Below, piece by piece: positions 2,628-24,960 of a DNA stretch of 58,313 nt. The notes beneath the pieces were generated by a model. It was not told the DNA's origin. It worked only from the letters and a program-made list of their open reading frames with translations, and made no database searches. The number at the start of each line of letters is the position of its first letter. Position 1 is the stretch's first letter. The position numbers and the translations under genes are program-made. The stretch comes from a virus (Duplodnaviria > Caudoviricetes): positions 1-58,313 of IMG/VR virus record IMGVR_UViG_3300048851_000052, one strand, 5' to 3'.

Positions 2628-3241
2628 GCACCACCCTTCGCCGCTTCTGCATCTTGCCCGCAGATCTCGTCGACGTTGCAGGCGATGGGGGTGGCGAGGA
2701 ATGCGCGTGCTTCCGCATAGTCGCGGTTGTCGTCAAGCATCTTCTCGACGCTGTCACAGTCACCACCGAGGCCTGTGATTCGCTCGTGCCCAGCCTCAAG
2801 GCAGCACGCATAATCTGTCGTCATGCGGCGCAGCAACTCCCGCGCCTTGGTCAGGTCGGATTGGAGCGCGCCTGCATGGGACGCAAAAGCCTTGAACATT
2901 TTAGAGAATCTGGCTTGGTCAACACCAATAACGCGCATGACTTCTTTAGCGTCCAGCACATCTTGCAAAAGGTCCATGCGCCTCTCTTTGAGCCTGTTAC
3001 GCTCTACGGTCAGATCACACACGCGCTGATCAGCGATGTTCAGGCGCTGCTGTAGGGCGGCGACGCGATCCTTGCCCATCTGCTCCCGGGCGAGAAAGAT
3101 CGAGTACGCATCCTGCGACACGCGGACCGATCGGCCATCGATGCCGAAGTCGACGCCATCACCTGCCGGAGCAACATCCCCACGGCAGACTGCCAAGCGC
3201 TCTGCAGGACAACCGCTCAACCGCTTGCATAGCTGACTCAT
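2624..3241 (-). CDS. Coiled-coil phage protein
   Basis: Heptad-rich segment ALQQRLNIADQRVCDL; translational coupling. Confidence 0.65.
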   Translation of the reverse strand: MSQLCKRLSGCPAERLAVCRGDVAPAGDGVDFGIDGRSVRVSQDAYSIFLAREQMGKDRVAALQQRLNIADQRVCDLTVERNRLKERRMDLLQDVLDAKEVMRVIGVDQARFSKMFKAFASHAGALQSDLTKARELLRRMTTDYACCLEAGHERITGLGGDCDSVEKMLDDNRDYAEARAFLATPIACNVDEICGQDAEAAKGGA

Positions 3242-3471
3242 GCTCGTTTCTCCATGTCAGTGGTGATGGACTCAACAATCACCGGCCCAAGAATTCGGAT
3301 GTTGCGGCTGTCTTCTTTGAAAGCACGGTTCAGGCGGCCGACCGCTGCCTCTCGAGCCTGCCGGTAAACCTGGTCCAACAGGCAGTCGGGCCCCCACGAG
3401 CCAAGGTTGCTCAGCTCGACGGTAAGCGTGACTTTCGCCCCTGTTGTCGTTCGTACGACTGGCTTGCTCAT
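3238..3471 (-). CDS. Hypothetical phage protein
   Basis: Start MSKPVV after GGAGG; overlaps neighbours. Confidence 0.6.
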   Translation of the reverse strand: MSKPVVRTTTGAKVTLTVELSNLGSWGPDCLLDQVYRQAREAAVGRLNRAFKEDSRNIRILGPVIVESITTDMEKRA

Positions 3472-22978: not shown

Positions 22979-23449
22979 ATGCCCACAGTATTTGTGTCTG
23001 GCTTAGAGATAACCTTGGATGAAGAAGATCTTGGGCTTCTGTCCGAACCCGGATGGCGCGTGATGAATGTAAATGGGTTGCCCTACGTCTTCCGCAATGT
23101 CAGTAAGAGAAGAGGGACCCCTAACCAGCTATTCCATAGGGCCATTATGAATTGCCCCGAAGGTATGCTTATTGATCACAAAAACGGCCTGACGCTCGAT
23201 TGCCGAAAGGAAAATCTGAGGATATGTACGCATGCTCAGAACATGAGAAATCGGAAGATGAGCAAAGCGAACAGATGTGGATTCAAAGGAGTCCACGAGG
23301 ACTGCAGAACTCCCGGAGTTTTCATCGCCCAGATCAAGTTTGAAGGCAAACGATATCGGCTCGGCAGGTTCAAGGATCCAGCGGAAGCTCACGCTGCCTA
23401 CTGCGTAGCCGCAACGAAATATCACGGCGAGTTCGCTCGGACCGCCTAG
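22979..23449 (+). CDS. HNH-AP2 homing endonuclease
   Basis: HRAIM..IDHKNG..ENLR..N..N HNH domain; GFKGV..AQI..LGRF..EA..AY AP2 domain. Confidence 0.9.
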   Translation: MPTVFVSGLEITLDEEDLGLLSEPGWRVMNVNGLPYVFRNVSKRRGTPNQLFHRAIMNCPEGMLIDHKNGLTLDCRKENLRICTHAQNMRNRKMSKANRCGFKGVHEDCRTPGVFIAQIKFEGKRYRLGRFKDPAEAHAAYCVAATKYHGEFARTA

Positions 23450-23775: not shown

Positions 23776-24020
23776 GGTGCGCCCTGGTAGTTGTGCTGAT
23801 GCTTGCCGGGTGCGCTCAGCAGGACGCAGTGACACCGCCACCGACCGAGCACAAGACGACGGTGTTCCGGTTCACGTCTGCGCCGTCGGTGTGTCCTGAG
23901 CCTGAATCGCCCAAGGCAGCGCTGAAACGCATGACGAAGAGTCGCGACGAATGGAAGCAGTACGCCGAAAGCCTCGAAAAACTCCTACCTGCGGAAGCAA
24001 CCAATGGCACTCATCCCTGA
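23772..24020 (+). CDS. Lipoprotein, putative o-spanin
   Basis: Lipobox LAGC followed by a Pro-rich segment. Confidence 0.6.
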   Translation: MRCALVVVLMLAGCAQQDAVTPPPTEHKTTVFRFTSAPSVCPEPESPKAALKRMTKSRDEWKQYAESLEKLLPAEATNGTHP

Positions 24021-24219
24021 ATGGCGGAAGGCCTGGAAGCTGACCAGTGTCCAGATCGCCGCCGTGGGTGCCGCGCTTAATGCGGCGGCGGTGGGGTGGC
24101 TGCTGTTTCAGGGTTCGGTGCATCCGCTGCTGTTCGCTAGCGTGAACATGGCCCTTGGCATCGGTGTCGCTGTATCGCGGGTGGTGCAACAGCCAGAGCT
24201 GCACAAGCCGGAAGATTAA
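24004..24219 (+). CDS. Putative holin (2 TM)
   Basis: LIPEWRKAWKLTSVQ..two hydrophobic helices..RVVQQPEL. Confidence 0.7.
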   Translation: MALIPEWRKAWKLTSVQIAAVGAALNAAAVGWLLFQGSVHPLLFASVNMALGIGVAVSRVVQQPELHKPED

Positions 24220-24228
24220 AGATTCAAT

Positions 24229-24327
24229 GGGGTCGTAGCTCAGCGGTAGAGCGCCAGGACTTAGGCATGTTCTCGAGAGTGCCGAAAGACTGCCTGGATG
24301 TCGGAGGTTTGAATCCTCCCGACCCCC
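24229..24327 (+). ncRNA. tRNA-like RNA with a 34-nt insert in place of the anticodon loop
   Basis: Acceptor GGGGTCG/CGACCCC, D-arm GCTC-AGCGGTA-GAGC, CCAGG/CCTGG stem, T-arm GGAGG-TTTGAAT-CCTCC; no encoded CCA. Confidence 0.8.
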
Positions 24328-24498
24328 GCTTACTGGAAGGCCGAGAGGCAGAACTAAAACGAGGCGCCGGTGCGCGCCTACCTGTCGAACGAACGACCTG
24401 GCGCGCAGGGTAATCAGTCGGCAGGGAACCAGTAGGGCAAGAGCAAATAACTCGCGCCACGAATTCAGATGCGCCCGTTTCGTGGCGCGGAGTAACTC

Positions 24499-24960
24499 AT
24501 GACGACCATCGCCTACAAAAACGGCGTGATCGCCTATGACTCTCGCCGCACATGTGATGGAAGAATCGTAACTGACAGGGCAGACAAAAAGCGTGAGCGC
24601 GATGGGCATGTTTTCTTCGGCTCTGGATCGACCTCGGACATTCTCAGCCTGATGGATGCCTTCTTCGGCGCAAAGATCGAGGGAGAGTGTGACGCCCAGG
24701 TCATCGTCGTCCACGATGGACATGTCACGGAAATCATCTGGACTGAGGGCCGACTGTTCAAATACCCGGTCGACCATGAATACGCAATCGGTAGCGGGTC
24801 GGACAACGCCATCACCGCCATGGACATGGGTGCGACTGCTGCTGAGGCAGTGGAGATGGCGATGAAGCGAGACACGGCAACTGGTGGGCAGGTTAGGACG
24901 CTGCTGGTAAGAGGAGGCAATACTGATGATTCGCCCCCATCCTCCCAATGCACTGCTTGA
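24499..24960 (+). CDS. HslV/proteasome-beta-like Ntn-hydrolase
   Basis: N-terminal MTTIA..DSR; AIGSGS..A..AM..GA.A.EAV..A..RD..TGG. Confidence 0.85.
   Translation: MTTIAYKNGVIAYDSRRTCDGRIVTDRADKKRERDGHVFFGSGSTSDILSLMDAFFGAKIEGECDAQVIVVHDGHVTEIIWTEGRLFKYPVDHEYAIGSGSDNAITAMDMGATAAEAVEMAMKRDTATGGQVRTLLVRGGNTDDSPPSSQCTA

Follow-up and report, generated by a model that had tools for sequence, protein, structure and literature searches.

A non-decoding tRNA-shaped element joined to a conserved structured RNA domain in a tailed phage and its relatives

What purpose can a tRNA cloverleaf serve once its anticodon loop has been replaced by a structured insert? The question is raised by the plus-strand element at positions 24229-24327 of IMGVR_UViG_3300048851_000052, a tailed-phage (Caudoviricetes) entry of IMG/VR that is a complete virus record of 58.3 kb; this whole stretch is called the window below. 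The initial annotation took the element for a non-decoding tRNA mimic produced late in infection and named as its possible roles a decoy for anticodon nucleases or aminoacyl-tRNA synthetases, an RNase P processing signal and an RNA scaffold. It ended the element at 24327 and missed its continuation of about 111 nucleotides (nt). Our comparison with related sequences makes it rather probable that 24229-24438 on the plus strand is the gene of a single non-coding RNA with two parts, about 210 nt long, in which a non-decoding tRNA-shaped handle is followed by a conserved effector domain. Both domains exist and adjoin each other, the structure is conserved, the 5' domain is non-decoding and the module is accessory in the window phage.

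The tRNA-shaped element and the domain that follows it

The 5' domain (24229-24327) matches the tRNA family RF00005 with 54.7 bits (E 4.7e-09) against a gathering score of 29, and this is the sole Rfam match in the 58-kb window. The cloverleaf is fully paired: the acceptor stem (24229-35/24320-26) has 7 of 7 pairs, the D stem (24238-41/24249-52, within the D arm 24238-52) 4 of 4, the anticodon stem (24254-58/24293-97) 5 of 5 and the T stem (24303-07/24315-19, within the T arm 24303-19) 5 of 5. The T loop reads TTTGAAT (24308-14). Past the discriminator C at 24327 the sequence continues with GCT, whose bases pair in helix P1 of the 3' domain, and CCA is not encoded. Where a tRNA has an anticodon loop of 7 nt that contains U33 and a readable anticodon, this element has an expansion of 34 nt (24259-24292), which forms the hairpin GGCAT (24264-68)/GTGCC (24279-83) around the palindrome TCTCGAGA (24271-78). 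In all these details the description given in the initial annotation is accurate, and the check that it proposed with ARAGORN and Rfam gave the Rfam score above and no ARAGORN gene call anywhere in the window in default mode. Lacking both an anticodon loop and an encoded CCA, the 5' domain cannot decode. The same tRNA-like body is found in L002 (56.6 bits with RF00005), which is the closest relative of the window module (members of the family are cited by their L numbers), and in L014, a related Pseudomonas-type phage contig (48.2 bits). The acceptor stem of L014 differs from that of the window at two pairs, each of which is changed on both strands. The proposal of a non-decoding mimic under selection, as opposed to simple decay, is borne out by the intact stems and by L002, which has the same body with an insert of 30 nt.

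Directly after the discriminator begins the conserved 3' domain of about 111 nt (24328-24438, plus strand), a four-way junction that fits our covariance model R1 with all of its helices P1 to P5; the score of 121.6 bits is a match by construction, since R1 was built from 24 sequences including the window. P1 (24328-36/24429-38) closes the domain with a G-C pair, a bulged G (24436) and 7 further pairs. P2 (24340-42/24347-49) carries a GAGA loop in the window and GNRA, UUCG or UUAG caps among the members, and P3 (24362-67/24374-79) consists of 6 pairs and a 6-nt loop. The 8 pairs of P4 (24381-88/24418-25) lead into an 8-by-8 internal loop of near-constant sequence (24389-96 and 24410-17), beyond which P5 (24397-24400/24406-09) has 4 pairs and a 5-nt loop (24401-05). 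The joints measure 3 nt between P1 and P2, 12 A-rich nt between P2 and P3, a single A between P3 and P4 and 3 nt on the way back to P1. Only one unpaired nucleotide, the discriminator, separates the acceptor stem from P1. If P1 were stacked on the acceptor stem, the 3' end of P1 would come to lie against the 5' end of the RNA, as far as geometry can be read from the secondary structure. An unconstrained minimum free energy (MFE) fold of 24229-24445 reproduces both the cloverleaf and the 3' domain.

The two domains differ greatly in their distribution. A BLAST search of 24200-24500 against cultured phages matched about 80 nt located 3' of the tRNA-like body and nothing in the body itself. The matches, all of them in DNA without annotation, extend over 71-82 nt at 82-86% identity and come from TPWB-08, from the Pseudomonas jumbo phages Psa21 and D6 and from three Vibrio phages; in TPWB-08, Psa21 and D6 they lie inside a tRNA gene array, and the D6 match comes after a gene annotated 'tRNA-OTHER'. 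Pattern scans yielded 15 loci in IMG/VR and 13 in metagenomes, 6 of which duplicate others, and a looser pattern added 8 more, all confirmed by R1. Altogether 33 instances were tabulated from phage contigs, metagenome contigs and cultured phages, the window included. All 24 sequences used to train R1 score 105-129 bits, and the matches outside the training set are the 8 loci of the looser pattern (54-119 bits) and a second copy in L010. This L010 is a 310-kb jumbo-phage contig with two whole modules (2587-2768 and 3172-3359) about 600 nt apart; the second is the more divergent one (102.7 bits): its P5 loop is 7 nt long, and the base of P3 carries a compensated change.

Patterns of the tRNA-like body and insert found only L002 in IMG/VR, and neither the body/insert pattern nor the pattern of the core domain occurs in 185,579 bacterial and archaeal species (one genome each). 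The 3' domain has no match in complete genomes of E. coli, and its three weak matches in plasmids (E 0.3, covering 21-36% of the query) were taken as chance. The family is confined to phage sequences. Another tRNA called by ARAGORN lies less than 1 kb away in 25 of the 33 instances (the raw count of 26 includes the element itself); the window belongs to the minority outside tRNA arrays. Near relatives are also present in four sequencing-run contigs, probably of DNA or of unknown type, one of which, 250 nt long, spans 24220-24437 with 9 differences.

The helices of the 3' domain are supported by compensatory changes. An anchored parse handled 23 of the 24 non-redundant sequences; P1 retains 7 of 7 pairs in all 23, from about fifteen distinct P1 sequences, P5 retains 4 of 4 in all 23, and P4 shows 8 of 8 pairs in 16 sequences, 7 of 8 in 4 and 6 of 8 in 3. 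In a MAFFT alignment 91.5% of the cells are paired, compared to 72.6% in shuffles, with none of the 500 shuffles reaching the observed value, and double changes occur in 21 of the 31 pairs. An alignment of 25 sequences fitted to the model, and hence biased towards it, has 97.0% of cells paired, compensatory changes in 23 of 31 pairs and a covariation score of 0.637, which falls to at most 0.113 with slid partners. Covariation among homologues, which the initial annotation had suggested looking for, is thus found in the helices of the 3' domain. In the model-fitted alignment G-U pairs occur on the plus strand only, therefore the plus strand is the RNA strand. While the helices covary, the nucleotides of the junction and the internal loop are near-invariant across unrelated phages, and the G directly after the discriminator is invariant in all 24 aligned members.

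The 3' domain has no match in Rfam. In release 15 a 129-nt query (24322-24450) gave no match at E <=10 among all 4227 families, a set whose ribozyme and riboswitch content was left unchecked. Searches of the available literature by keyword and motif gave no description of such an RNA, although the supplements of large catalogues, which were left unsearched, may list the motif (for example PMC10690425, with 10,006 virus-RNA candidates). Resemblances to 5S rRNA, RNase P, the signal recognition particle RNA and the GTPase-centre rRNA were considered by eye only, and none of them is supported by an Rfam match. A sarcin-ricin or loop-E motif in the internal loop between P4 and P5 was rejected, as its 'GAA' positions vary. 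A kissing-loop dimer formed via the palindromic P5 loop was rejected too, as the palindromy is not kept among the members: the loop is RCGCG in most of them, and AGGCG, GCGAUCG, GGGUUCG and GGGAUCG also occur. On the minus strand an intrinsic-terminator-like site was called in the window (24362-24379) and in L005 (1514-1531), in both cases on the complement of P3 and the A-rich junction; it is probably a by-product of the conserved sequence of the RNA and of this junction, and less probably the sign of a role in both directions.

Upstream of the 3' domain the picture is one of a conserved shape with a variable part. In about 27 of the 33 instances a partly manual reading finds that acceptor stem and T arm are present, the latter with a sequence like that of a T loop, together with a hairpin resembling a D arm and a non-standard anticodon arm, and in the window such an element ends one base before P1. 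The family as a whole retains the shape of the cloverleaf, and its anticodon arm is hypervariable. The insert of L002 shares the base of its hairpin with the window and differs at the apex by a 4-nt indel and substitutions; L014 has about 37 nt of unrelated sequence and the L003 group about 55-70 nt. L010 has a loop of 3-5 nt, whereas its second copy, L021, L025 and L042 have long stems with UUAG, UUCG or GUAA tetraloops; the arm is an 8-bp stem in Psa21 and has a 14-nt loop in D6. Since the arm ranges from 3-5 nt to about 70 nt among the members, the 34-nt insert is best seen as one state of a hypervariable expansion arm and not as an intron, a bait or a sign of decay. It is present in a single copy in the window (one match at <=3 mismatches), and its interpretation as a repeat or a mobile mini-element was rejected. 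A kissing-loop dimer via the palindrome at its apex was dropped for want of data. The CUUAG that recurs in anticodon arms was rejected as a remnant of an anticodon: the UUAG tetraloop also caps P2 in several members, thus CUUAG is more likely a stable loop.

Favoured reading and its rivals

We suggest the following course of events. The RNA would be read through within the late transcript in the window phage and within tRNA-array transcripts in most of the other phages. Its tRNA shape would recruit host RNase P, and possibly RNase Z/BN, which would provide defined ends and stability. Any processing has to rely on host enzymes, because a CCA-adding enzyme, RtcB, an RNA ligase and Ro60 were sought in the complete 58-kb genome of the window phage and none was found. 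The 3' domain would be the working part; it would bind some host component that is conserved between Pseudomonas and Vibrio, or act on it, and the two domains would either stay joined or be cut after the discriminator. Of the roles put forward in the initial annotation, two are plausible for the tRNA-shaped domain as far as its sequence allows us to judge, namely that of a scaffold and that of a signal for RNase P processing; if it is a scaffold, the cargo is likely to be the conserved 3' domain and not the 34-nt insert. As to what the 3' domain does, our suggestion is a tentative one: it may represent a phage-borne RNA class that is new, either catalytic or able to bind a ligand or protein, and the phages would have placed it on a tRNA-shaped handle so that the host tRNA-processing machinery matures and stabilises it. 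It could, for instance, be a new self-cleaving ribozyme that acts between the discriminator and the following G, or it could act like an aptamer as a decoy for a signal or factor of the host that is conserved from Pseudomonas to Vibrio.

Several observations weigh against a bipartite RNA of this kind. The fold of the whole RNA is not significantly stable (z-score -1.54, with 13 of 200 shuffles folding equally well), and the insert hairpin is unexceptional as well (z -0.46); our case therefore rests on comparison and not on energy. No sequencing run on record as RNA contains the stretch. The invariance of the 3' domain is to a large extent built in, as 35 of the 48 invariant columns were positions fixed by the search pattern; this bias spares nothing but the BLAST matches, the flanks and the helices, which were N in the patterns. 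The looser pattern did find members that are altered at some of the fixed positions, for example by a compensated change of A-U to G-C or C-G at the base of P3. One would also argue that a mere processing handle needs no dedicated non-decoding tRNA in arrays that are full of real tRNAs. The classification of the upstream elements as tRNA-shaped was partly manual, the automatic parse chose wrong acceptor strands in several loci, and the gathering score of RF00005 is reached only by the window, L002, L014, both copies in L010 and L020. Finally, not every 3' domain has such a partner. Two of the 33 instances, the Vibrio phage locus L005 and L038, have no cloverleaf upstream, and in two others, L039 and L041, the partner is a genuine tRNA-Ala(UGC) with CCA; the contigs of a further two (L016 and L024) are too short to judge.

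The exceptions deserve a closer description. In Vibrio phage 1.106.O (L005) the domain stands in a 900-nt intergenic region, and a strong intrinsic terminator 20 nt past it, ahead of a peptidase M15 gene, suggests a free-standing small-RNA gene. The region upstream of the RNA in this phage (L005 940-1300) contains many short repeats of the type TTACACGGA / ATGACACGG, which look iteron- or operator-like. In L039 (7738-7843) and L041 (1446-1578) a variant of the 3' domain that has no P2 and has a 7-nt P5 loop lies directly after the tRNA-Ala(UGC)-CCA, and the P1 strand of L041 seems to take in the CCA end. This arrangement may be the ancestral one, or it may hint at a connection with the 3' ends of tRNAs.

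The principal alternative, drawn by analogy with known ribozymes, is one that we consider unlikely: the 3' domain would be a cis-acting self-cleaving ribozyme, or a dedicated nuclease site, that is cut between 24327 and 24328 and so frees a tRNA-shaped RNA with a defined 3' end. There is a precedent for it at the 3' ends of phage tRNAs in the theta ribozymes, which are minimal ribozymes like that of hepatitis delta virus (HDV); according to Kienbeck et al. (2024, PMC10879173), their cleavage site lies <=1 nt from the tRNA 3' end and few of the tRNAs linked to them encode CCA. The invariant G after the discriminator, a tRNA-like partner without CCA, near-invariant junction and internal-loop nucleotides that resemble a catalytic or binding core, and the position of the domain directly behind a genuine tRNA-Ala(UGC)-CCA in L039 and L041 all agree with this explanation. 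However, the covarying helices are all nested, with the first strand pairing to the last, which is not the HDV double pseudoknot, and the 129-nt query found no Rfam ribozyme even at E <=10. The G and C past the discriminator are base-paired in P1. Moreover, the partner is nearly always a non-decoding mimic, so that tRNA maturation would lack an obvious purpose, and in the Vibrio phage the domain has a terminator of its own and lacks an upstream tRNA.

Much less probable is the decoy for anticodon nucleases of the PrrC or PARIS type or for aminoacyl-tRNA synthetases, which the initial annotation had proposed. The tRNA shape is kept, and phage tRNAs that counter tRNA-cleaving defences exist. However, the anticodon arm, the very part that such nucleases recognise, is the most variable in the family, and no common loop is available as bait. 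A synthetase decoy fares no better: acceptor stems and discriminators differ between the members and CCA is unencoded, hence there is no common synthetase identity. Either kind of decoy leaves the conserved 3' domain unexplained.

It is similarly improbable that the module is a cis-regulatory, riboswitch-like leader of the genes downstream. It does precede protein genes in the window, where an HslV-like gene follows, and in Vibrio phage 1.106.O, where the terminator and then the peptidase M15 gene follow. However, the downstream genes differ among the window, L002 and L014, the terminator of the Vibrio phage does not overlap P1, and with 25 of the 33 instances among tRNA genes, the next feature is often a tRNA about 10-30 nt downstream instead of a coding gene.

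A functional tRNA gene whose 27-nt intron is spliced out to leave a decoding tRNA can hardly be upheld. The stems are intact, and ARAGORN with introns allowed does call a tRNA with an 'intron'; its calls, however, are Ser(aga) in the window and Ala(agc) in L002, its forced anticodons clash between Psa21 (Gly acc) and D6 (Asp gtc), and the length of the arm is not conserved in relatives. Given the 5-bp anticodon stem, no removal of 27 nt leaves a 7-nt loop with U33. The MFE arm has bulges of 1 nt and 4 nt and no 3-4-3 motif, that is, no bulge-helix-bulge, and the Rfam searches found neither group I nor any other intron family. The 3-5-nt loops or tetraloops of other members are unable to decode, and bacteria are not known to have an enzyme that splices such short tRNA introns. 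The last explanation, namely that the element is a tRNA pseudogene in decay, that the cloverleaf arose by chance or that the site works at the DNA level (att or pac), could appeal to the unencoded CCA, the unusual T loop and the silence of ARAGORN in default mode, but it is scarcely credible. All four stems of the element are fully paired, and two acceptor pairs are compensated in L014. A covarying RNA domain whose G-U pairs are confined to one strand invariably accompanies the element, the family spans unrelated phages, and the explanation is contradicted by the helix pairing and covariation results.

Locus and neighbouring genes

The kin of the window phage are temperate Pseudomonas siphophages such as phiAH14a, Medea1 and Aurca01. 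The genes around the module are all on the plus strand, in the order Q-like antiterminator, holin-like protein, module, HslV-like protein and terminase genes. The 5' flank is the gene of a 71-amino-acid holin-like protein (24004-24219; PHROG 1356 holin, E 5.2e-18). From its stop to the first base of the tRNA-like domain runs a short A/T-rich leader (24220-24228), delimited by eye; a similar motif was seen, also by eye, ahead of the element in Psa21, D6 and L019, and the leader may be a processing context. A scan 5' of the module found no promoter-like site. We infer expression late in infection solely from the position of the module downstream of the Q-like antiterminator and holin-like genes in the same orientation.

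Among the relatives of the window phage the module is an exception. Medea1, phiPSA1 and Aurca01 lack it, and among 68 IMG/VR loci with relatives of the holin-like gene the 3' domain is present in one, on the contig of L002. We therefore regard the module as an accessory insertion of about 225 nt. A normal tRNA in close relatives, which the initial annotation had named as evidence that would speak against a mimic, does not turn up: none of the 68 loci has a tRNA downstream of the holin-like gene.

The 3' flank is the gene of a protein similar to HslV-family peptidases (24499-24960, plus strand; PHROG 1040, E 5.6e-37), annotated in relatives as 'proteasome subunit beta'. Such a gene between lysis and terminase genes is unusual for a phage; it is also present in relatives without the RNA module. 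Just 5' of its ribosome-binding site lies a perfect 11-bp hairpin (inverted repeat I4, 24453-24489, plus strand), which is outside the module and marks its downstream boundary. The hairpin is kept at the DNA level in phiPSA1, MR13, MR15, psageK9, Medea1 and Aurca01, directly 3' of the last lysis gene, and in phiPSA1, MR13, MR15, Medea1 and Aurca01 no tRNA-like element stands between that gene and the hairpin. It is not a plain terminator, because it has no U tract; a role in processing, regulation or packaging is possible.

Two further observations concern the surroundings of the module. In the window the Q-like antiterminator gene is separated from the lysis region by an HNH endonuclease gene (22979-23446); Psa21 has an HNH endonuclease gene too, just past its tRNA array. 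In L014 a Proteo-phage-1 RNA (RF03044, 85.7 bits; 2494-2573 on the minus strand) is found on the same strand as the module and about 1.2 kb upstream, so that it is transcribed before the module there; RF03044 has no match in the window.

Comparison with known RNAs

The window module and its relatives form a chimera with strong comparative support that lies outside all Rfam families. It explains a class of places in phage tRNA arrays that are recorded as 'tRNA-OTHER' or pseudo-tRNA or left as unannotated gaps. It also shows that the odd anticodon arms of phage tRNA-like genes can be neutral expansion sites and not introns or products of decay. Its function is directly testable, because its carriers include the cultured phages Psa21, D6 and TPWB-08 and Vibrio phages of the Nahant collection.

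The 5' domain shares with the canonical tRNA (RF00005) the acceptor, D, anticodon and T stems, the D loop with GG and the T loop. It departs from it in the 34-nt arm, in having no assignable U33 or anticodon and no CCA, and in a 3' end that runs into another helix. A tRNA-shaped module that remains uncharged and is joined to a second RNA is known from the tRNA-microRNA (TMER) transcripts of murine gammaherpesvirus 68 (MHV68) and from MALAT1-mascRNA, where the shape serves RNase P and RNase Z. In contrast to these eukaryotic cases, the partner in the phages is one conserved complex domain instead of microRNA hairpins or a long non-coding RNA. With species 1 and 2 of phage T4 (rnaC and rnaD), small stable RNAs that end a phage tRNA array, only the setting is shared; homology to them was rejected, as R1 with filters off gives <=1.9 bits. 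Examined by eye, the end of T4 rnaC (L045 2909-3047, minus strand) consists of a hairpin that resembles a T arm and has a TTCGAAT loop, together with an acceptor-like strand.

The large ornate RNAs GOLLD and ROOL often occur near tRNA genes and in prophages. Like the RNA described here, they are structured and phage-associated (PMC12286853), but they are several hundred nt long and have Rfam models, which do not match here. In the tRNA-theta pairs (PMC10879173) too there is a structured RNA that starts with G at a phage tRNA-type 3' end, mostly without CCA, and is confined to phages. The differences lie in the nested four-way junction of about 111 nt, in the lack of any match to the HDV family and in the partner, which here is a non-decoding mimic and there a real or suppressor tRNA. 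The nested double pseudoknot of the HDV-like and theta ribozymes (P1, P1.1, P2, P3 and P4), in which the first strand pairs with an internal one and a catalytic C stands in J4/2, is not found in the 3' domain.

Parallels are also offered by the transfer-messenger RNA (tmRNA) and the bacterial Y RNA YrlA (PMC4201824), which likewise unite a tRNA-like part and a second module in one RNA and have phage-borne copies. However, the tRNA-like part of tmRNA is formed by both ends of the molecule and comes with CCA and a tag reading frame. ARAGORN finds no tmRNA in the window and none among the 33 modules, and neither YrlA nor tmRNA gives an Rfam match. The RNA thus resembles tmRNA, YrlA, the tRNA-microRNA transcripts and the tRNA-theta pairs and is a member of none of these groups. 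Each of these chimeras of a tRNA and another module revealed new biology, and the RNA from the window phage and its relatives is another of their kind.

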